DNA of 64,000 nucleotides from a virus (Duplodnaviria; Caudoviricetes): positions 1-64,000 of the IMG/VR virus record IMGVR_UViG_3300028907_000003; one strand, written 5' to 3'. The notes below the pieces were generated by a model, which saw only the letters and a list, made by a program, of their open reading frames with translations, ran no database searches and had not been told where the DNA came from. This document shows, one piece after another, positions 1,582 through 52,449 of the stretch. Position numbers and translations under genes: made by a program. Each line of letters begins with the position of its first letter. The first letter of the stretch is position 1.

Positions 1582-2348
1582 GTCGCCTCCAGCTCAAGGT
1601 CAAGGACAACCTGCTCGCATGTGGTTATTCCGGACGTTATGGCGGTGATGTACTTTCCAGCTGCGACAGTGATGTTCAGCCCGGTTTCTTCTAAGCTGGA
1701 TGTACTGCTTAATGCAAAACTATCGACTGAACTTCCAATTGCTGCATTATAATCATGAATATAAACAGTAATTGTAATTGAACCAGATTTTAATGCCCCA
1801 TCACTATCTAAACTTCTAATATATGCTTTTGTAATTTTTGATGCTATTGGAATTCTCTTTGTCGAAGCTTCAGCAGTCAGAACAGCAGATCCGTTTCCAA
1901 ATGGAAAATTAACTCCGAAAGTTGGTGTTGCCCAACTAGCATCTCCGAGAAGTCTCTGTTTGGTATTCGGATATTTCTGCATTAATCCGTGTGCTGATGT
2001 AGATGCATTCAAATCAGTATTATCGTCTGGAGAATTCAAATCATCTAGTTTGTATGGGAACCGCTTAAATGTATATGGAACATCTTTTGGGGCTTGATCA
2101 ATAGAATATGAATGTGCTGTAATTGCAGCATTTGCTACAGTATATAAGCCCCCGCCATCTAAAGTTAATGTTGTAACAGGTGATGCATATGATGTTGTTG
2201 TAATTATGAAAAACTTATCAGTTGTTTGGGTAATCTTAATCCATTGTCCCGGCCAGTATTTCGCTCGAAGGTCTTCTGCCGGAGAAGCCGTTATGTTAAT
2301 TGATGTCGAACTAGCGTAAGCCCATGTTTCTGTCATACTGACCACCAA
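1578..2348 (-). CDS. tail/head fibre-like protein (mosaic)
   Basis: 256-aa Thr/Ser-rich ORF; KLDDLxSPDDNTDLNASTSAHGL-type fibre repeat; composition shift in the last about 45 codons. Confidence 0.5.
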   Translation of the reverse strand: MVVSMTETWAYASSTSINITASPAEDLRAKYWPGQWIKITQTTDKFFIITTTSYASPVTTLTLDGGGLYTVANAAITAHSYSIDQAPKDVPYTFKRFPYKLDDLNSPDDNTDLNASTSAHGLMQKYPNTKQRLLGDASWATPTFGVNFPFGNGSAVLTAEASTKRIPIASKITKAYIRSLDSDGALKSGSITITVYIHDYNAAIGSSVDSFALSSTSSLEETGLNITVAAGKYITAITSGITTCEQVVLDLELEAT

Positions 2349-2371
2349 AAATATTAAAAAGATATCTTGAT

Positions 2372-2899
2372 TTAAGATATCTTCTTACATAGAGCAATTA
2401 CAGAATACTGTCCAGCAGATCTACTAGTTTGCGCATCAGTGTAGATATAAATATCGGCACCCTCAGCAAATTGAGCATCAGCAGTTCCAACACCGACCAC
2501 ACCAACCACGCTATTCGCATGGTTCATGAATACGGTATCAGACATGTCTAATGTAACAGTACCAGTAGATGCAGTTGTACCAGCCGCTTCTTTAGTGATC
2601 TTGGTTACATCATCACCAGTTCCGCCAGCCTTAGCCTCAATCAAAGTAAAATACGCAGCTAATACTTCTAGCTTACATGGAGCAGCATCGGTTAGCTTAG
2701 TAGCTACCGCAGACGCAGATGCACCGAAATCATGAGTTACTGGACCTAAGAAAAATGTAGAAGCTACCTCATCATCAGCAGCTAACTTGGGCTCAGTAAC
2801 CGCGCCAGTGTTGATTTTTACAGTGGTTACAGATAAGTTGCCAATTTTAGCTGATGCAACGGGAGTTTCTATAAATCCTCTACCTTGTGTGGTTGTCAT
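2372..2899 (-). CDS. capsid decoration/head fibre protein
   Basis: Directly downstream of MCP; SAKIGNLSVTTVKINTGAVTEPKLA repeat typical of head fibres. Confidence 0.5.
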   Translation of the reverse strand: MTTTQGRGFIETPVASAKIGNLSVTTVKINTGAVTEPKLAADDEVASTFFLGPVTHDFGASASAVATKLTDAAPCKLEVLAAYFTLIEAKAGGTGDDVTKITKEAAGTTASTGTVTLDMSDTVFMNHANSVVGVVGVGTADAQFAEGADIYIYTDAQTSRSAGQYSVIALCKKIS

Positions 2900-2914
2900 T
2901 TAAGCCAACCTCCC

Positions 2915-3832
2915 TTAAGTAATGGCTAGTTCTACAACGCCACCAGTTGCGTGAGTCTCAAGAGGAATAAGCCACTCTCTCATCTCAACATAGTAATTTC
3001 CACCCTTCTGTCGTGGATAGTTAGCGTCAATTGCGATATCCTGAGCATGAACCATCTCAGCGAACAGGCTATCCTTACATACCAGATAAGCAAATCCAGA
3101 TGGTACAGCATCGGAGAACTTCAGGAAGCTTCTATCATTCTCATTTCCGGTAAGCAGAGAAGCAATCTGAGGTAAGAAAGCATCACGCTGTGCATCCTTG
3201 CGCCACATTCCGATCATCTCAGATCTGCGGCCTAATAGAAACATCTGAGAATTGGCAAACTTGTCGTCAATTCTGGCCAGAGCATTTAATACGTCCTCAT
3301 AAGGATCCATCGCAGCATCGGTTTCAGAGCCATCCCACGCACCCCTGTTATTGACATCATTACCAGTTGCACCAGATGCAACAACTTTACCGGCTTCGTT
3401 CAGAGCGGCAACGCCATCTAATCCAACAATGCCATAGGTAGAGTTACCATTAATAACTACATCATCTTCAAGTCTATGCAGATATCGCATTCCTAGATCG
3501 ATATTTCTAGCCTGCATCTCAGGATCTCTAGCTAGATCTCTCTCGTTGATAATGAAAGATGTTGCAAAGCTGAACACATCATACTTAACATTCTCTGCGA
3601 ATGTTCCAATGGTTCCAGGAACAGATCCCTTAGCAACGATCTCAGCGTTCTGACCGGCATCCTTGTACTTCAATACCACATCGATATCAGCAGTTGAAGG
3701 TAGGCTTCGCCTAGCCACTATCTGGCGAGCCATCATATTGTCGCCGTAAACTTGAGTATAAAGTGTAATTCTCTTAGTGAAATTTGTTACCCAATCCACC
3801 GGAATTGCACTTGCACCAAACATAGATTCCAT
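2915..3832 (-). CDS. major capsid protein (HK97 fold, linocin/encapsulin-like)
   Basis: 305 aa; follows protease and decoration genes; LHRLEDDVVINGN...YGIVGL pattern of HK97-type MCPs. Confidence 0.75.
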   Translation of the reverse strand: MESMFGASAIPVDWVTNFTKRITLYTQVYGDNMMARQIVARRSLPSTADIDVVLKYKDAGQNAEIVAKGSVPGTIGTFAENVKYDVFSFATSFIINERDLARDPEMQARNIDLGMRYLHRLEDDVVINGNSTYGIVGLDGVAALNEAGKVVASGATGNDVNNRGAWDGSETDAAMDPYEDVLNALARIDDKFANSQMFLLGRRSEMIGMWRKDAQRDAFLPQIASLLTGNENDRSFLKFSDAVPSGFAYLVCKDSLFAEMVHAQDIAIDANYPRQKGGNYYVEMREWLIPLETHATGGVVELAIT

Positions 3833-8494: not shown

Positions 8495-8559
8495 TCTATA
8501 TCACCCCCACAAATATCTGATATTTTATCTACCAGATACACAACTCTAGTTTTTCGCAT
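8491..8559 (-). CDS. 22-aa linker micro-ORF between the two TerL halves
   Basis: MRKTRVVYLVDKISDICGGDIE*; its TGA overlaps the GTG start of the nuclease gene. Confidence 0.3.
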   Translation of the reverse strand: MRKTRVVYLVDKISDICGGDIE

Positions 8560-10546
8560 CTTTATCCAACCCTCTGTTTCTTGCAGCTTCTATCCAATCT
8601 AACGGCAATAACGTATGTTCACCAACTGATGGAAAATTACCTTCAATTCTTGCTTGCCAAGCCGGATGATCCAACCCCCACATCTTATACTGAGATGCTA
8701 CCCATTTAGGCTGAATTAACCATGGATACGGAGCAAGTTCATCACCCATCTTATCTTTCCACGTACCATCAATAATGTCCTGCCGAGTTATTTTAAAGCG
8801 TGTAAAATTCGGTGTCATCCAAGCACTGATATGGAAAGTCTTATATTCACCACTTGAAAATGATTTATAAAAAGTACCACCAACTGACGTTGGATTTCCA
8901 AGCATAAGCATTTTCGCGTTTTCTGAAGTTAGAACACCCGAAATAGCATCGAATATTTCTTCATTTACACCTGCAGCTTCATCCACAACAACTAAAATAT
9001 CTTTAGCGTGCCATCCCTGAAAACGATCAGGCTGATTAGTTGATATACCGGACGCATACCAACGATCTTGATCGATTTGTAATTCAGGTGATTTCGGAGC
9101 TAATGTACCACCGAGATTACCAGCCCGTCTATGATTAATACGAATTTCTTTCCAGATCAATTTTTCGACCTGTCTCCAAGTAGGAGCAGTATTCAACACT
9201 ATACTATTTTTATGTGTATATAAAAACCACATAATTACTTGAGCAGCAGTGTGCGAATTATGTTCAACGAAATTTGTAACATAAGTATGCGTATCATCTA
9301 CCGAAATGCAAACTGTCGGATGCTCTCCTATATATTCTATAGATTTTATAAATTCCCAATGATATCCTTCCGGCGCATTTATATACTGCCACATAACATC
9401 AAACTTTCTACTATTGGCCACTTCAACACATCGGTTAACCGCATCTTCTTTACCATATATTCCAACTACTTCAGCAAAACGATTAATACCAACTCGATCA
9501 AAAACAGCCCATTCCCAGGAATCAAAATATTTCCCATTGCATTTTACTCTCTTATATCGAGTTCTGCCTGATATACCCATTCGTAGCATAGCAATTTCAA
9601 CGTCTTTAATCATTTGCTCTGATGCAGAAGTTATACCTATATGCGCGTTTTTATGACTACCATCAATCCGAACAGTTGCCCAACCATCGCATGCAAAATA
9701 TCGATTTAAAAATACTGCTAATTGATCATTCGGTAATGTCCAAACAAAAGCAGGAAATTTCTTATCTTTCGATTTAACACCGAACATTTTCCATTGTTTT
9801 ACTAAATCTAAAACACGATTTTCTCCATGAAAGGTTCCCGCAACAACTAATAGCCCATAATTATCACGCATTCGATAGCCACAATTCATACTAGTAACTA
9901 TATTAACAAACTCGGTTTTTGCAATTCCAGCTGCTTGCGTAAAAGTTATCGGATTAATAGTAGTGCCGCCATCTCCAATCAAATAACCACATAGCTTTAC
10001 TTCATCTATATCTCGTGATATCATACCATTAACTTCTAATTTCGTAGGTACTAATAACAAATCGTCAATTGTTAAATCAACTACCTCTGTCCAACCAACC
10101 ACTTTAGGTTTGATACCACGATTTCTTGCAGCAATTGCTCGATATAATTTATGATTACCTGTAACTTCTAGCTGTCGATTAGATGAAGTTGTAACTCGAT
10201 ATACTGAAGCAATACCATTGTCTGTGGCGTGGGCAACTGCAAACTTCCGCTCAGTGTCAAACGTGGGTATATTAAAAGTTTTACCGATTAAATCTTTCAT
10301 TTGACAATGTGTACCATCATATAAATCTATAAATCGATAAGCATAACCACACTTCCCTATACCATTGCAAGACCTAACGGTTACTCTAGGATAATCCCGC
10401 ACGGCATTTAAAATCTGTTTCTGTTTTTCCCAAGGCTTTATATGTAAAACATTTTCCGAGAAATAAACTGGATTCTCTTTATATTGTTGTATAGCAGCCG
10501 CGTTTAAATCATCAATCTTTCGTGGCATCTCGTACCATATCCGCAA
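8546..10546 (-). CDS. terL: terminase large subunit ATPase domain with intein
   Basis: Walker A CNGIGK|S, Walker B VVVDEA, LMLGNP coupling motif; start probably ATG at 10528. Confidence 0.9.
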   Translation of the reverse strand: MRIWYEMPRKIDDLNAAAIQQYKENPVYFSENVLHIKPWEKQKQILNAVRDYPRVTVRSCNGIGKCGYAYRFIDLYDGTHCQMKDLIGKTFNIPTFDTERKFAVAHATDNGIASVYRVTTSSNRQLEVTGNHKLYRAIAARNRGIKPKVVGWTEVVDLTIDDLLLVPTKLEVNGMISRDIDEVKLCGYLIGDGGTTINPITFTQAAGIAKTEFVNIVTSMNCGYRMRDNYGLLVVAGTFHGENRVLDLVKQWKMFGVKSKDKKFPAFVWTLPNDQLAVFLNRYFACDGWATVRIDGSHKNAHIGITSASEQMIKDVEIAMLRMGISGRTRYKRVKCNGKYFDSWEWAVFDRVGINRFAEVVGIYGKEDAVNRCVEVANSRKFDVMWQYINAPEGYHWEFIKSIEYIGEHPTVCISVDDTHTYVTNFVEHNSHTAAQVIMWFLYTHKNSIVLNTAPTWRQVEKLIWKEIRINHRRAGNLGGTLAPKSPELQIDQDRWYASGISTNQPDRFQGWHAKDILVVVDEAAGVNEEIFDAISGVLTSENAKMLMLGNPTSVGGTFYKSFSSGEYKTFHISAWMTPNFTRFKITRQDIIDGTWKDKMGDELAPYPWLIQPKWVASQYKMWGLDHPAWQARIEGNFPSVGEHTLLPLDWIEAARNRGLDKDAKN
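9257..10351 (-). mobile_element. intein (365 aa) with LAGLIDADG endonuclease in TerL Walker A
   Basis: C1 start (CGYAY), TGNH block B, YLIGDG and YFACDG motifs, ends HN followed by S. Confidence 0.92.
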
Positions 10547-19053: not shown

Positions 19054-19509
19054 TTATACCTGTAATTCATGTTTCCTATCGTGTATTACAACATCACCTA
19101 TACAATAATCTTCATAATCATGCAAACAAAAACTAAAAGTATTAACACAATGTTCCCATACCGAACAAGGAAACATATAAAATGTACCTTTTACATTTGT
19201 TGCAATATAATCAACCGAACCCCTGTATAAAACCCCACTTGATGATTTTACTTTAACCGCCCAACAATCGGACCCTGATTTTGAATTTACCCATGCATTT
19301 TTTATTTGTATTCGTTTCCATGAAATTCCATTATCGAATGATATAATACGATCATATTCCAATGATGTATTGCATGGTATTCCAACTAACCAGTTATTAG
19401 CTTGTGCTAAAACATCAAACATGCGCTCGGTTTGATTCCCAATAGTAGAACTTTTACTAAACATATACCATACTATATACACTAATAGTATATAAGTATT
19501 TCTAATCAA
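19054..19509 (-). CDS. free-standing PD-(D/E)XK endonuclease (group I intron-type family)
   Basis: E...D.LA....W.V.IP.....EYDRII...WKRIQIKNA motif. Confidence 0.6.
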   Translation of the reverse strand: MIRNTYILLVYIVWYMFSKSSTIGNQTERMFDVLAQANNWLVGIPCNTSLEYDRIISFDNGISWKRIQIKNAWVNSKSGSDCWAVKVKSSSGVLYRGSVDYIATNVKGTFYMFPCSVWEHCVNTFSFCLHDYEDYCIGDVVIHDRKHELQV

Positions 19510-19577: not shown

Positions 19578-19623
19578 GTATAGCGTCATATATCATATCC
19601 CGATAACAGTCGGGATACCTCCT

Positions 19624-19706
19624 GCCACTTTAGCAGAGTAGACAAATGCAATGGACTTAAGATCCATTCCCGTAGGGGTTCGTCGGTGCAAATCCGGCAA
19701 GTGGCA
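19624..19706 (+). tRNA. trnL: tRNA-Leu(TAA)
   Basis: GCCACTT/AAGTGGC acceptor, ATGGA-CTTAAGA-TCCAT, variable arm CCC-GTAG-GGG, GTCGG-TGCAAAT-CCGGC. Confidence 0.85.
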
Positions 19707-19707
19707 T

Positions 19708-19914
19708 ATGGCACAAGATCTAATAGCCCAAACCATAGAAGCAATGGGTATAAAAGAACTAGATACCATAAAAGTAGAAACCGATGAAATAGATACCGTG
19801 TACAAGGGAGTATTTCGTGGTTTCGTGAAAGACTCCATATTACTTGGAGCGTTAAAAATTCCATGTAAAAAAGTTACAAGTATTGAAGGAAATGGATGTA
19901 CAGCCATTATATAA
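19708..19914 (+). CDS. 68-aa small beta-barrel protein (Sm/LSm-like candidate) inside the tRNA array
   Basis: MAQDL... helix then IKVET/VYKGVFRGF/SILL/KIPCKKVTSI strands; the ORF-track start at 19651 overlaps tRNA-Leu. Confidence 0.5.
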   Translation: MAQDLIAQTIEAMGIKELDTIKVETDEIDTVYKGVFRGFVKDSILLGALKIPCKKVTSIEGNGCTAII

Positions 19915-20313
19915 AGCTCTATAGTGTAGTGGTCAATCACGAGGTTCCATGTATAAATACAAACAGCGAATAAATCCAAGAACCGGTAAAATTGATATGA
20001 TATACCGAATAATTGCCGAACAATATTTAAATAGACCACTACTAGAATCTGAAGTAGTTCATCATAAAGATGGTAATCCAAATAATAATAACATAGAAAA
20101 TTTGGAAATTATGACTCGTAGTGAACATGCCAAATTGCATCATATACCAAAAAAACTAATATCGCTTACATGCCCAATATGCAAAATAGAATTCACTATA
20201 GCATATTCACAATATAAAAAACGATCAAAACACTCAACATGTCCAGTATATTGCTCTCGATCATGTTCAGGTAAAACTAGAAATCCTCCGCATATTCGAT
20301 CTAATTAGAGCTA
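19915..20313 (+). pseudogene. tRNA-Gln-type gene interrupted in the anticodon arm by an HNH ORF
   Basis: 5' half AGCTCTA-TA-GTGTAGTGGTCAATCAC-GAGG; 3' remnant CCTC...TTCGAT...TAGAGCT-A; perfect 7-bp A1:U72 acceptor stem. Confidence 0.7.
19949..20308 (+). CDS. HNH homing endonuclease with C-terminal Zn finger
   Basis: VVHHKDGNPNNNNIENLEIM...EHAKLHH; CPIC...YCSRSC. Confidence 0.85.
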   Translation: MYKYKQRINPRTGKIDMIYRIIAEQYLNRPLLESEVVHHKDGNPNNNNIENLEIMTRSEHAKLHHIPKKLISLTCPICKIEFTIAYSQYKKRSKHSTCPVYCSRSCSGKTRNPPHIRSN

Positions 20314-20316
20314 TTT

Positions 20317-20382
20317 GGTTCCGTGGTGTAGTTTATCATCGTGTTGGCCACACAGCCTTCGGTTCAAATCCGAACGGAACCA
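20317..20382 (+). pseudogene. degenerate 66-nt tRNA (loop would read GGC)
   Basis: GGTTCCG/CGGAACC acceptor and TTCGG-TTCAAAT-CCGAA T-arm intact; D-loop lacks GG; anticodon stem only 3 bp. Confidence 0.6.
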
Positions 20383-20387
20383 TTTAA

Positions 20388-20461
20388 GACCATATAATGT
20401 AATTCGGATACCACGCGGGAATGCGAATCCCGTAACCTGCGTTCAAATCGCAGTATGGTCA
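20388..20461 (+). tRNA. trnR: tRNA-Arg(GCG)
   Basis: GACCATA/TATGGTC; CGGGA-ATGCGAA-TCCCG; CTGCG-TTCAAAT-CGCAG. Confidence 0.8.
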
Positions 20462-20464
20462 TGT

Positions 20465-20538
20465 GTTGGTGGTAGCTGAGTTGGTAAAGCTCCAGACTGT
20501 GGATCTGGTGATCGTGAGTTCAAACCTCACCCATCAAC
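20465..20538 (+). tRNA. trnH: tRNA-His(GTG) with encoded G-1
   Basis: CCAGA-CTGTGGA-TCTGG; G-1 opposite C73. Confidence 0.9.
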
Positions 20539-20542
20539 CTTC

Positions 20543-20617
20543 GGGGATGTGATGTAGCCTGGTCTATCATTCGTGGTTTGGAGCCACGATACCTCAGTTC
20601 AAATCTGAGCATCCCCA
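20543..20617 (+). tRNA. trnP: tRNA-Pro(TGG)
   Basis: GGGGATG/CATCCCC; CGTGG-TTTGGAG-CCACG. Confidence 0.9.
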
Positions 20618-20619
20618 TC

Positions 20620-20692
20620 GGGCGGGTAGATCAATTGGAAGATCGTCTGCTTTGCATGCAGAAGGCTTTGGGTTCGACCCCCAACTCGTCCA
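20620..20692 (+). tRNA. trnA: tRNA-Ala(TGC)
   Basis: GGGCGGG/CTCGTCC; TCTGC-TTTGCAT-GCAGA. Confidence 0.9.
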
Positions 20693-20693
20693 C

Positions 20694-20810
20694 TTCGACT
20701 GACAAGAAGTATGCCAAGAAGCCTTCTTGATTTCGATGAATAGATGGGCATAAACCCAGATCTATTTGGCAGGCGAGATGCTGAAGTCCAGTGAGAAATC
20801 ATAGGTCGAA
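20694..20810 (+). ncRNA. unknown structured RNA between tRNA-Ala and tRNA-Cys
   Basis: Closing stem TTCGACT/GGTCGAA, internal TGCCAA/TTGGCA, ATAGAT-GGG..CCC-ATCTAT, GTGA-GAAA-TCAT. Confidence 0.5.
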
Positions 20811-20816
20811 ACATGT

Positions 20817-20890
20817 GCCGATATAGCCTAGCCCGGAAAGGCAGCTGATTGCAGATCAGCGATTCACAGGTTCAAATCCTGTTATCGGCT
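20817..20890 (+). tRNA. trnC: tRNA-Cys(GCA)
   Basis: GCCGATA/TATCGGC; GCTGA-TTGCAGA-TCAGC; U73. Confidence 0.9.
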
Positions 20891-20892
20891 TC

Positions 20893-21001
20893 GCCTCTGA
20901 AGCAATATTGGAATTGCGCCTGACTTGTATGCAGTGATGGGTTCATCCCCAAAGCTGTCGAGGCCATCAGGAGGGAATGAGTTCGAATCTCATCAGAGGC
21001 T
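20893..21001 (+). tRNA. trnT: tRNA-Thr(TGT) with a 36-nt intron at 37/38 (20930-20965)
   Basis: GCCTCTG/CAGAGGC; CCTGA-CTTGTA|intron|A-TCAGG; CTTG/CGAG central helix of a BHB/BHL motif. Confidence 0.85.
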
Positions 21002-21004
21002 TTA

Positions 21005-21092
21005 GCTGGTTTGGCTCAGAGGTACAGCGACGCACTGCTAATGCGTTTTGTGGCGAAAGCTGCGATCATCGGTTCGATTCCGATAACCAGCG
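21005..21092 (+). tRNA. trnS: tRNA-Ser(GCT)
   Basis: GCTGGTT/AACCAGC; ACGCA-CTGCTAA-TGCGT; long variable arm; G73. Confidence 0.92.
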
Positions 21093-23222: not shown

Positions 23223-23776
23223 GAAGAATCTTCCTTGATGACTTTAATGATGGTCGTGAGACTGGTATTGAATTGGTTCAGTTGTATGGTGAATATCCTG
23301 GACAAGAAATAGTTACATATGGGATTCATTATAACACTGGTGATACACCAACTGATTATCCATACTGCGTCGTACCAAATGTTGGGATCAACTACTCGTT
23401 TAAAAAGAGTATGTTTATTCGTGTATATAATTGGGATCTTTTCCGTCAGCTAACTGGCGCAAAATCTATATCGGAATTAGGAATCTATCAATATGAATAT
23501 GATCCATATGGACTATTATATTTTGGTAGAAATACATATCCTAGAAGCCAATATGTGCAAGCCAGTGGTACAATAGCTGTATCAGGCGATTGGTGCGGAG
23601 ATGGAATGATATTAGCCAATGCATTTACCAAAATGAATCCATATGTAATCGCAAATGGGAAATTCTCAAAAGAATTTGAATCCGATTTATTCATATCACA
23701 GATAAAGATCTCATCTGACACTCAACAAGGACTGTATAGTTTTCCGCTTCTTCGTGTTACGGCGGTGATTGAGTAA
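23219..23776 (+). CDS. hypothetical protein
   Basis: ATGA-coupled ORF upstream of rtcB. Confidence 0.5.
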   Translation: MRRIFLDDFNDGRETGIELVQLYGEYPGQEIVTYGIHYNTGDTPTDYPYCVVPNVGINYSFKKSMFIRVYNWDLFRQLTGAKSISELGIYQYEYDPYGLLYFGRNTYPRSQYVQASGTIAVSGDWCGDGMILANAFTKMNPYVIANGKFSKEFESDLFISQIKISSDTQQGLYSFPLLRVTAVIE

Positions 23777-24930
23777 TGGAAATATTAGAAACCCATAGAT
23801 TGCCCATCTATAATTGGGCAACTGACTTGGAACAGGGAGCTAAACAGCAAGCTATTAATTTAGCTTTGCACCCATACACGTATGATCATGTGGCTATTAT
23901 GCCTGACAGTCATCAGGGTTATGGAATGCCAATTGGTGGGGTTATTGCTACTAAGTCGGTGATCATTCCTGAAGCAGTGGGGGTAGACATCGGATGTGGT
24001 ATGCAAGCTGTTAAAACTAGCCTCAGTGATATGAACATGACCGCTCTACAGCATGTAGTTGATGATATCAAATCTCGAATACCTGTTGGTTTCTCACATA
24101 GATCTGAATCATTATGGGCTTATATGCCACCAGGACACGAAAAATTAACAGTTGTTAACAGGGAATTTGACTCGGCGTGTCATCAATTAGGAACATTGGG
24201 TGGCGGGAACCACTTCATCGAAATTCAGCAAGGTGATGATGGTTATATCTGGATGATGGTTCATAGTGGAAGCCGCAATCTAGGCAAGAAGGTAGCCGAT
24301 CACTATATAAAAATGGCTACTCAGCAGACAGCAGATTCCGATGTCAACATTCCTAGAAAGTGGGAATTAGACTACTTATACGTAAATTCACCAGATGGCC
24401 AAGATTACATACGAGAAATGAACTACTGCCTAGAGTTTGCTAAAGCAAATCGCTCATATATGATGAAAGAAATGTGTGAATCCATGAGCGCTGTCATACC
24501 CACTGTTAGTTATGAGCCTGTAATTGATATACACCACAATTACGCCGAACCGATTAAACTGGATGGTCTTAATCTGGTGTTGCATAGGAAAGGCGCTACA
24601 GCTGCTAATCGTGGTCAGATGGGTATTATTCCTGGCAGTCAGGGGACCGCCAGCTACATTGTAGAGGGCCGTGGTAATGGTAAGTCGTTTTGCAGCTGCT
24701 CACATGGATCCGGGAGGCGCATGGCTAGAGGAGTCGCCAAGCGAAACTTAAACCTGGATGATGAGCGGTATATACTCGATAGGCAAATGATCATTCATGA
24801 TATGACCAGTACTGAAGCCCTAGATGAAGCTCCAGGCGCTTACAAGAATATCGAATTGGTTATGGAGAATCAAAAGGATCTAGTAAAGCCACTAGTTAGA
24901 TTGACTACAAGAGCGGTGATAAAAGGATGA
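23776..24930 (+). CDS. rtcB: RtcB 3'-phosphate RNA ligase (short bacterial-type)
   Basis: MPDSHQGYGMPIG, VDIGCG, GGGNHFIE, HSGSR, HRKGAT, SHGSGR, EAPGAYK. Confidence 0.95.
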   Translation: MEILETHRLPIYNWATDLEQGAKQQAINLALHPYTYDHVAIMPDSHQGYGMPIGGVIATKSVIIPEAVGVDIGCGMQAVKTSLSDMNMTALQHVVDDIKSRIPVGFSHRSESLWAYMPPGHEKLTVVNREFDSACHQLGTLGGGNHFIEIQQGDDGYIWMMVHSGSRNLGKKVADHYIKMATQQTADSDVNIPRKWELDYLYVNSPDGQDYIREMNYCLEFAKANRSYMMKEMCESMSAVIPTVSYEPVIDIHHNYAEPIKLDGLNLVLHRKGATAANRGQMGIIPGSQGTASYIVEGRGNGKSFCSCSHGSGRRMARGVAKRNLNLDDERYILDRQMIIHDMTSTEALDEAPGAYKNIELVMENQKDLVKPLVRLTTRAVIKG

Positions 24931-50061: not shown

Positions 50062-52449
50062 ATGTCATTCGATCCTGCGGCTTGTTTGGTGTTTGATGAC
50101 CGGACAGGTAGTTTAATTGGTGTTGATGCTGTTAAGGTAAGAGATTGGTTTACCAAGCATTTTAGTGTACTGAGTATTGTACCCACAGGCGACATTTATG
50201 TGTACAATAATGGAGTTTTTAGATGCGAAGGTGGATCTAAAGAATGGATTACACACAAGCTGTATGAAAATTGGGGCAGATATACACTATATGATGGTAG
50301 CCCGTTGCTGAGTATCAATAGGGTGCGAGAGTTAGTTGCTTTTATACAATTAGCTACGTACCAAGAGATGTTCCTAGATGTTTCCACCAGAAAAACCGTG
50401 TTTGATGCCAATCTTGATATCGTTAATATGGCAAATGGTTTATATAATTGGAGGACAAATGAATTCATGCCTCATACCAGAGAGTATTTATCGAGGATAC
50501 AGGTTCCGGTTAGATATGTGGAGGGTGCTACATGTCCAACAATTGATGCTATAATCGGGGATGTATTAAAACCGCAAGATGTACCAAAGTTCTATGAGTT
50601 TGCTGGATATCTGTTTTACCGTGGAGTGGCCATTGATAAGGCTGTTATGATGCTGTACGGACCCGCTCGTAGCGGGAAGGCGTTGGAAGTTCATACACCA
50701 ATACCAACCCCGACAGGGTTCACTGAAATTGGTGATTTGGAAGTCGGGGATGAAGTGTTTGATGAAGAAGGTAACATCGTAAAAGTTATTGGCAAAAGTC
50801 CCGTGTGGAAAAACCGCCAATTATATGATGTTGCTACTAGTGATGGCGAACACATTCTTGCTGATGAGGAACATATTTGGCGAGTATGTTTAAATCCCGG
50901 TGTAAAAAAGGATCGACCTAGCCGACGAGAGTATATAACAGATCATACTACGGAAGATTTATATAATCGACCATCAACACGCAAACCTAGAATATTAGTG
51001 CAAGGTGCTATTAAAACCGGAAATATTGATCTACCAATAGGGCCATATACGTTAGGTGCGTGGTTGGGTGATGGAAATTCTCATAGTGCAATTATCACAC
51101 AACTTGATACCAATGATCGAGAATTTATGGAGAACCGTATAAACGAAGAAGGATATATAACAAGCAAACAAACAACCATTGGTACATTTGGTATACTTGG
51201 TCTTGTAACTCAACTTAGACAGCAAAGCTTATTAAAAAACAAACATATACCAATGATATACTTAAGAGCGAGTTATGATCAACGAATTGCCCTGCTGAAT
51301 GGACTAATAGATACTGATGGTTACGTTGGTGATACTGGGCATGTTGAATTCTGTACGACCAACAAAAACCTAGCAGATGGTGTATATGAACTTGTTAATT
51401 CACTTGGTGTAAAGGCAACCAAACATATTGGTGATGCGAAGCTTGATGGAAGGTTTATATCTAAAAAATATAGAGTGTGCTTTTACAAATCAGATGCTGC
51501 ATCACTTCCAAGAAAAAAGAATAAATGTCGAGACTCTGTTATGAGAGCGAATCGCTACATATCAATTACAAAGGCTGGTATTGGAGATACTATATGTATT
51601 CAAGTAAGTGCGCCATCTGGAATGTTCTTATGTGGTAAATCGTTCTTGCCGACTCATAATTCAGAATTAGCACGATTAATCATGAACGCAGTTGGAATAA
51701 ACAATTGTGCCGCAGTTACGCCACAGGAGCTTGGAAGAGATAAATTTGCAACAGCTGCTTTAGAGGGGAAGCTGGTTAATCTCGTGGGAGATGTGGATGA
51801 TAAGCCAATTGAGAATGAAGGTGTGTTTAAGAAGGTAACGAGCGGTAAGGACTTGCTACAAATCGAGAAGAAATTCCAACAGCCGGTTCAAGTAATAAAT
51901 ACTTGTAAAATGGTGTTAATCGCCAATATGTTGCCACCGATCTCGGATTTGACTAAGGGTTTCTTCAGACGGATGGAAATATTTGGGTGTTACCATGTGT
52001 TTGATCCACTGGTAGATGACCCGGAGAGGCTGAAAGCGATAGATGATCCTATGGAGTTATCCGGGTTTGTTATAAAGTGTTTGGGTATGTTGCCGGGAGT
52101 TCTTTCTAGGAAGATGCTGACTAATGAAATGTCTGCTGATGATGTACGGAGTCTTTACATCATGAACGCAAATCCGGTACAGGGATTTATTGATTTGTGT
52201 ATAGATGACGATGTTCCCGGTGGTTTCGCCAGTAAGGACATGACGTATAAATATTATGTGGATTTTTGCCGAGCTATAAAAGTTGAAAAACTGTCTAAGA
52301 CCATGTTTGGTAAAGCGTTTAAAAAAGCAATGGGGTGGACCGGAAATGAGCGACAAAGCCAGCGGAAGTTCCATGGTGGAGACAAGTGGGGATGGACTGA
52401 AATTAGGCTCAAGAAACCTGAATTAATGTTGGAAAAGTTGGTGTGTTAG
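50062..52449 (+). CDS. primase-associated SF3 (D5/P4-like) helicase with intein
   Basis: VNMANGLY...PH.REY, CP, GPARSGK|S, GKLVNLVGD, IEKKF, FFRR. Confidence 0.9.
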   Translation: MSFDPAACLVFDDRTGSLIGVDAVKVRDWFTKHFSVLSIVPTGDIYVYNNGVFRCEGGSKEWITHKLYENWGRYTLYDGSPLLSINRVRELVAFIQLATYQEMFLDVSTRKTVFDANLDIVNMANGLYNWRTNEFMPHTREYLSRIQVPVRYVEGATCPTIDAIIGDVLKPQDVPKFYEFAGYLFYRGVAIDKAVMMLYGPARSGKALEVHTPIPTPTGFTEIGDLEVGDEVFDEEGNIVKVIGKSPVWKNRQLYDVATSDGEHILADEEHIWRVCLNPGVKKDRPSRREYITDHTTEDLYNRPSTRKPRILVQGAIKTGNIDLPIGPYTLGAWLGDGNSHSAIITQLDTNDREFMENRINEEGYITSKQTTIGTFGILGLVTQLRQQSLLKNKHIPMIYLRASYDQRIALLNGLIDTDGYVGDTGHVEFCTTNKNLADGVYELVNSLGVKATKHIGDAKLDGRFISKKYRVCFYKSDAASLPRKKNKCRDSVMRANRYISITKAGIGDTICIQVSAPSGMFLCGKSFLPTHNSELARLIMNAVGINNCAAVTPQELGRDKFATAALEGKLVNLVGDVDDKPIENEGVFKKVTSGKDLLQIEKKFQQPVQVINTCKMVLIANMLPPISDLTKGFFRRMEIFGCYHVFDPLVDDPERLKAIDDPMELSGFVIKCLGMLPGVLSRKMLTNEMSADDVRSLYIMNANPVQGFIDLCIDDDVPGGFASKDMTYKYYVDFCRAIKVEKLSKTMFGKAFKKAMGWTGNERQSQRKFHGGDKWGWTEIRLKKPELMLEKLVC
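50680..51660 (+). mobile_element. class 3 intein (327 aa) with LAGLIDADG endonuclease
   Basis: Ala1 start (ALEVHTPIPTPTG), W in block B (EHIW), C in block F (TICIQV), T in PTHN; GAWLGDG and GLIDTDG. Confidence 0.9.

Follow-up and report, generated by a model that had tools for sequence, protein, structure and literature searches.

Sequence comparison indicates that an HNH endonuclease cassette has replaced the core of a tRNA-Gln gene in a probably archaeal virus

An HNH reading frame between the two ends of a tRNA-Gln gene

We analysed a 64,000-nucleotide stretch, hereafter the window, of an 85-kb IMG/VR virus record with a completeness of ~80%. Alignment with related contigs indicates that an HNH cassette has replaced the core of a viral tRNA-Gln gene, that the tRNA gene is destroyed, and that the cassette is not an intron. 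From these comparisons and by analogy with known phage systems, we consider the cassette to encode a free-standing HNH homing endonuclease that homes without an intron into a viral tRNA cluster at the cost of its target tRNA, a reading to which we give a probability of roughly 80%.

Within positions 19915-20313 of the window, a 119-codon HNH ORF separates the two ends of a tRNA-Gln gene. The 5′ remnant (19915-19940, + strand) corresponds to positions 1-25 of tRNA-Gln(CUG), comprising the acceptor 5′ strand, U8-A9 and the complete D-arm, and reads AGCTCTA-TA-GTGT-AGTGGTCAA-TCAC. It is followed by GAGGTTCC (19941-19948) and the ATG at 19949. The cassette, as delimited by the alignment of empty and occupied alleles, extends from 19941 to 20294 (+ strand) in place of tRNA positions 26-53. 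It starts with GAGG (19941-19944), 4 nt ahead of the ATG, which by its sequence and placement is most likely the Shine-Dalgarno site of the HNH gene. A first-pass annotation made from the letters of the window had counted this GAGG and a later CCTC as remnants of the tRNA. The intact gene has C26-CCGGA...TCCGG there; GAGG is cassette sequence, and CCTC simply forms part of Pro-Pro codons. That annotation had also described a 5′ half intact up to the anticodon loop, which proved too long, as the remnant ends at position 25.

The HNH ORF (119 aa; 19949-20308, + strand) ends with the codons CCT CCG CAT ATT CGA TCT AAT TAG, of which the final four to five and the stop are tRNA remnant sequence. 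As had been proposed, the frame therefore closes inside the 3′ part of the tRNA. A decayed T-loop and 3′ T-stem remnant (20295-20305, + strand) reads TTCGA-TCTAAT against TTCGAATCTTGA in the intact gene and codes for I-R-S-N; the TTCGAT noticed earlier is thus a genuine T-loop remnant. The 3′ acceptor strand TAGAGCT (20306-20312) and the discriminator A73 (20313) complete the gene (20306-20313, + strand), and the stop TAG lies within this acceptor strand. TAGAGCT is the exact complement of AGCTCTA, with A67 pairing with T6 in the window haplotype.

Intact alleles in related viruses

Relatives were gathered as 15 contigs from independent samples through protein-cluster look-ups with the HNH protein and the upstream 68-aa ORF. 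This ORF (19708-19914, + strand; extended to 87 aa by gene callers) is the left anchor common to empty and occupied alleles. The right anchor is a conserved 68-nt tRNA-like gene (20317-20384, + strand), which adjoins both kinds of allele and begins 3 nt after A73 of the tRNA-Gln remnant. At the identical site, flanked by both anchors, three contigs (L012, L014 and L016) have tRNA-Gln(CUG) as an intact gene of 74 nt. The intact gene reads AGCTCCA TA GTGT AGCAGGACAA TCAC C CCGGA CTCTGAA TCCGG AGAC TCAAG TTCGAAT CTTGA TGGAGCT A; it scores 61.2 bits against the Rfam tRNA model and has A1...U72 and A73 in its sequence. ARAGORN called tRNA-Gln(ctg) in L012, L014, L017 and L018. The last two are more distant (84% identity in the neighbouring protein); as their tRNA-Gln(CUG) at this place is intact too, the intact gene is the ancestral state.

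The occupied form was found in the window, L003-L011 and L015, and the empty form in L012, L014, L016, L017 and L018. Among contigs of four public runs, X3, X15 and X16 had the empty form and X4 the occupied one; RNA-library contigs at the locus showed the empty allele only. These findings bear out several points of the first-pass annotation. The HNH gene does lie in a tRNA-Gln with A1:U72 in an archaeal context, the intact orthologue in relatives being called tRNA-Gln(CUG). With an intact tRNA at the same place in L012, L014 and L016, the TAGAGCT-A match is a true 3′ acceptor strand plus discriminator and not a product of chance. The pairs of empty and occupied alleles that it predicted exist, for example L012 (empty) and L003 (occupied).

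Other searches added little. Exact and degenerate searches of IMG/VR with the 5′ remnant gave no matches, and the 10 matches to its pattern in JGI metagenomes were all unrelated chance or other-tRNA sequences. An IMG/VR search for related loci with the HNH protein, the 68-aa ORF and a 280-aa ORF yielded no useful relatives. None of the empty alleles among the relatives had the window-type acceptor (T6:A67).

Replacement, not insertion

When occupied and empty alleles were aligned, the match ran through tRNA position 25, against L017 and L018 as well as L012, L014 and L016, then stopped, and resumed at the T-loop, where TTCGAATCTTGA-TGGAGCTA of the intact gene faces TTCGA-TCTAAT-TAGAGCTA of the window. 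Between these points, 354 nt (19941-20294) stand in place of the 27 nt that held the anticodon arm, the variable loop and the 5′ T-stem along with position 26. These figures agree exactly with the lengths of the occupied (399 nt) and empty (74 nt) alleles. The right-hand junction (53/54) was placed by an 8/8 match with one gap.

This alignment bears directly on the suggestion that a homing endonuclease had invaded the anticodon loop as a giant protein-coding tRNA intron, of the archaeal bulge-helix-bulge (BHB) or group I kind, that was spliced to give tRNA-Gln and whose 3′ exon perhaps decayed later. The virus does have a real BHB-type intron in its tRNA-Thr and encodes RtcB. However, the two exons cannot form a tRNA: positions 26-53 of the intact allele, including the anticodon arm, are absent, and removal of the insert did not restore a complete cloverleaf. 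No BHB was found at the two junctions, the boundary cofold giving an extended acceptor stem only, and no tRNA, group I (Intron_gpI) or other Rfam model matched 19915-20313 at E≤10. In addition, the ORF takes up 360 of ~385 nt and, together with the Shine-Dalgarno site, fills the insert, and the homologues of the HNH protein are free-standing. We therefore regard the intron reading as highly improbable. The case also carries a caution for annotation, in that an ORF flanked by tRNA fragments is not evidence of an intron.

A split tRNA, in which a middle encoded at another locus would be ligated in trans to the 5′ piece (1-25) and the 3′ piece, has some precedent in the tri-split tRNAs of Caldivirga, where splits at 25/26 are known, and RtcB could again be counted in its favour. 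Against it, the 85-kb record (~80% complete) contains neither a sequence resembling a Gln anticodon arm (≤6 mismatches allowed) nor a Gln anticodon hairpin (CUG or UUG), and the T-arm of the 3′ piece is destroyed. The likelihood of this arrangement is close to negligible. A second tRNA-Gln was likewise not found in the same record, again at ~80% completeness.

The HNH protein

The ORF product matched HNH_3 (PF13392) in Pfam with E=5e-11, and several PHROG HNH families also matched. It combines the HNH_3 motif with a C-terminal CxxC...CxxxCxxxC module. In an alignment of homologues, H38, H39, N47, N51, H60 and H64 were invariant, and the C-terminal ten residues lay outside any part conserved among the homologues. 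The genes of the nearest homologues stand on their own, with ordinary protein genes on either side. One lies 174 nt from a tRNA, and nesting inside a tRNA was seen in none of them.

Two types of cassette, A and B, were distinguished, type A occurring on two backbones. The two types differ at 33 of 357 nt compared, 19 of the differences being synonymous and 14 non-synonymous. The resulting dN/dS of 0.165 shows that the HNH protein is under purifying selection.

Mosaic flanks and the fate of the tRNA ends

One of the type A backbones is that of L003, which is identical to the empty L012 over ~300 nt on the left and ~250 nt on the right, save for the cassette and the adjacent A67. This base leaves a C6.A67 mismatch in the acceptor stem. 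The other is the window type (the window, L009, L011 and L015), in which identity to the empty alleles over 266 nt gives way to 7 differences within the 29 nt that abut the cassette (19905-19933). Of the seven, four lie in the upstream 68-aa ORF, every one of them synonymous. The 5′ remnant of the window type has T6, which pairs with A67, and its D-loop is nearer to those of the distant L017 and L018 tRNA-Gln. This is what transfer of the cassette from a diverged donor, along with a short stretch of co-converted flank, would be expected to leave. In type B (L004-L008, at least 5 contigs from several samples), tRNA-Arg, the tRNA-like gene and the 3′ acceptor strand have also been lost, and the HNH ORF ends 14 nt inside tRNA-His.

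The occupied alleles also allow the fate of the tRNA ends to be assessed. They might have been co-opted, so that the acceptor closure, the D-arm and the T-loop remnant let RNase P and tRNase Z, or protection by the stem, release or stabilise the HNH mRNA. Consistent with this, the acceptor pairs had probabilities of 0.86-1.0 in the partition function of the 399-nt window RNA, the C6:G67 pair of the other haplotype has a compensated counterpart in T6:A67, and the downstream tRNA-like gene lies only 3 nt away. Nevertheless, the occupied alleles do not conserve the closure: in L003 it has the mismatch C6.A67, and the five type B contigs, which have no 3′ strand, keep the HNH gene under purifying selection. 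The T-arm needed for RNase P-type recognition is destroyed, and the compensated pair is more simply explained as inherited from a diverged donor tRNA. Co-option thus seems very unlikely. Of the earlier idea of a tRNA shell enclosing a stem-closed mRNA, the good folding of the 7-bp closure in the window stands, whereas the mismatch in L003 and the missing 3′ strand in type B do not fit it. A related speculation, which we hold to be very unlikely, is that the 7-bp stem, D-arm and T-loop remnant of the window type serve as a tRNA-like handle by which host enzymes excise or stabilise the HNH mRNA from a precursor of the cluster. If true, this would be a case of viral mRNA punctuated by a gutted tRNA.

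The flanks bear equally on whether the cassette is mobile in its own right. It could instead have landed once by illegitimate recombination and spread by general recombination or hitch-hiking, with the nuclease serving the virus otherwise, in DNA packaging or processing or in attack on host or competitor DNA. Many small phage HNH proteins work with terminase, and the tRNA cluster is generally mosaic, as seen in the type B deletion, a second HNH gene in L006 and L007, and the tRNA-Thr missing from L005. On the other hand, the HNH gene is far from the terminase-like ORF (8546-10546), and its absence from otherwise near-identical viruses implies that it is dispensable. Its position falls exactly within a conserved tRNA gene that has had a segment removed, the hallmark of a homing endonuclease gene that occupies its target site, and the L003/L012 pair differs by the cassette and one adjacent base only. 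We consider a non-homing origin unlikely. Homing itself we infer from the presence/absence polymorphism and the mosaic flanks, both of which ordinary recombination during co-infection could also give.

Two further observations concern transcription signals. The motif ATTATATAA (19906-19914) was considered as a new TATA box for the HNH gene and rejected: the changes that create it are synonymous, donor-type polymorphisms, and other occupied alleles are without it. A scan for sigma-70 promoters and terminators, a model ill-suited to archaea, gave nothing above shuffled sequences.

A proposed course of homing

On the preferred reading of a free-standing homing endonuclease, its cassette of ~354 bp with its own ribosome-binding site lies in tRNA-Gln(CUG), and the tRNA gene is dead. 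The surviving ends (1-25 and 54-73) would be homology that remains on either side of the inserted cassette, and the HNH frame would simply run on into the T-loop and acceptor remnant until it met a stop. Transcription of the HNH gene is probably shared with the tRNA cluster. By analogy with T4 SegB, when a cassette-free relative infects the same cell, the nuclease may cut the intact tRNA-Gln of that relative. The break would then be repaired from the cassette-bearing genome, so that the cassette is copied together with a variable length of flank. The carrier allele would be immune, as the replaced segment 26-53, the presumed cut site, is gone. Loss of the tRNA may be tolerated because the host supplies tRNA-Gln. 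As CAG makes up 44% of Gln codons in the long ORFs, the lost tRNA was probably useful but dispensable.

Relation to known systems

Phage tRNA clusters are known to harbour free-standing homing endonucleases, which have been described as rare there (PMC2330249). In phage T4, SegB lies in the tRNA cluster, recognises the T-psi-C motif of tRNA genes, cuts the tRNA genes of T2L, RB1 and RB3, and drives its own inheritance (PMC2330249). The present locus resembles that of SegB, a GIY-YIG enzyme, in that a nuclease gene lies in a viral tRNA cluster, relatives are without it, and there is no intron (PMC2330249). SegB likewise has a tRNA gene as its target and is inherited with flanking markers. Unlike SegB, the putative homing enzyme of the window belongs to the HNH family and has a probable archaeal host, and its cassette lies inside a tRNA gene, replacing the core and destroying the gene.

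With free-standing phage HNH enzymes such as T4 MobE, the gene shares its small size, its own translation signals, a presence/absence polymorphism and mosaic flanks (PMC2790892). MobE-type enzymes are intergenic beside their target gene, whereas the window cassette occupies its presumed target; also unlike them, the window HNH gene borrows its stop from the tRNA remnant, and type B from tRNA-His. The HNH enzymes of the T5 tRNA region are further free-standing phage HNH homing endonucleases, to which the same likenesses and differences apply. In Aeromonas phage Aeh1, the nrdA/mobE arrangement is an instance of a gene split by insertion of a homing endonuclease. The window locus is similar to such fractured genes in having a homing endonuclease gene inside another gene rather than in an intron or intein (PMC2677866). 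However, split protein genes can work as two polypeptides, and a tRNA without positions 26-53 cannot.

Archaeal BHB introns in rRNA (I-DmoI/I-PorI) and group I introns in tRNA anticodon loops provide another parallel, since in these too an endonuclease ORF lies in a stable-RNA gene. Each of these is inserted precisely and, on splicing, leaves a restored RNA, whereas in the window 27 nt of the tRNA are deleted and no splicing structure is present. In a limited literature search, we found no described case of an HNH cassette replacing a tRNA core in an archaeal virus.

The isogenic empty and occupied alleles, with a later deletion derivative, amount to a natural before/after pair. If the homing reading is right, the locus extends SegB-type warfare over tRNA clusters to archaeal viruses and to the HNH family, and suggests that elements of this type can spread despite destroying their target gene. 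It would also help to explain why tRNA repertoires vary between near-identical viral genomes.

The virus and its probable host

The record encodes a portal, a baseplate J protein, a terminase and a primase with inteins, RtcB and an RNA ligase, which identifies a tailed virus. Its host is probably archaeal and likely a methanogen, as four lines of evidence suggest: the BHB-type (helix-bulge-helix) intron in tRNA-Thr(UGU); A1:U72 in the intact tRNA-Gln of relatives; portal matches which, among deposited phage records, were only to Caudoviricetes assigned to Methanosarcinales/Methanomicrobiales (25-26% identity); and the presence of viral DNA in activated-sludge, wastewater and anaerobic-digester runs. 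The virus would thus be an uncultured archaeal virus of wastewater and digester communities. The terminase-like ORF (8546-10546, − strand) and a D5-type primase/helicase ORF (50062-52449, + strand) each contain an intein with a LAGLIDADG homing-endonuclease domain, and with these two inteins the virus is rich in selfish nucleases.

The tRNA cluster and its neighbours

The viral tRNA cluster spans 19623-21092 (+ strand), as identified by ARAGORN and by Rfam tRNA matches of 48-64 bits. Its order is Leu(UAA), the Gln remnant with the HNH gene, the odd tRNA-like gene, Arg(GCG), His(GUG), Pro(UGG), Ala(UGC), Cys(GCA), Thr(UGU, with an intron) and Ser(GCU). ARAGORN called Leu, Arg, His, Pro, Ala, Cys and Ser in the window and added Thr once introns were allowed; Rfam found the same eight.

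The 68-nt tRNA-like gene was called by neither ARAGORN nor Rfam. A 7-bp acceptor is present, as is a T-arm, and relatives differ here by compensatory changes; the D-loop is without GG, and the anticodon arm is ~5 nt too short, with a stem of 3-4 bp. Read as a 7-nt loop, the arm gives GGC in the window and GCG or CGC in paralogues. Further copies occur in L012 (2842-2909), L014 (1978-2045), L017 (537-604) and L018 (482-549 and 633-700).

tRNA-Thr(UGU) (20893-21001, + strand) has a 36-38-nt intron at 37/38 that folds as helix-bulge-helix, and the RtcB gene (23776-24930) lies 2.8 kb downstream. L018 has this tRNA without an intron; in L005 it is gone, and Cys and Ser meet at a shared GGCTT. Between tRNA-His and tRNA-Ala of L017, an extra element of ~100 nt (~760-858) has a tRNA-like acceptor (CTCGAA/TTCGAG), a T-arm (ATTGG TTCAACT CCAAT) and a long internal insert; ARAGORN made no call on it. 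In L003, a gene for a Y1 (IS200/IS605-type) transposase and an adjoining ORF of at least 259 aa follow the tRNA cluster (1905-3079), and these are not in the window.

In L007 (528-1031) and L006 (1196-1699), a second, unrelated HNH_3 gene of 167 aa begins right behind tRNA-His and takes the place of everything up to tRNA-Ser, namely Pro, Ala, the spacer and Cys. CAGGATGT is left, resembling the first bases of tRNA-Pro. This second gene marks the tRNA cluster as a repeated landing site for nuclease cassettes. Just upstream of the cluster, a 151-aa ORF (19054-19509, − strand) gave a borderline PD-(D/E)XK match (PF11645; 26.0 bits against a cut-off of 26.1). It is present in all relatives seen and may represent another nuclease at the cluster edge.
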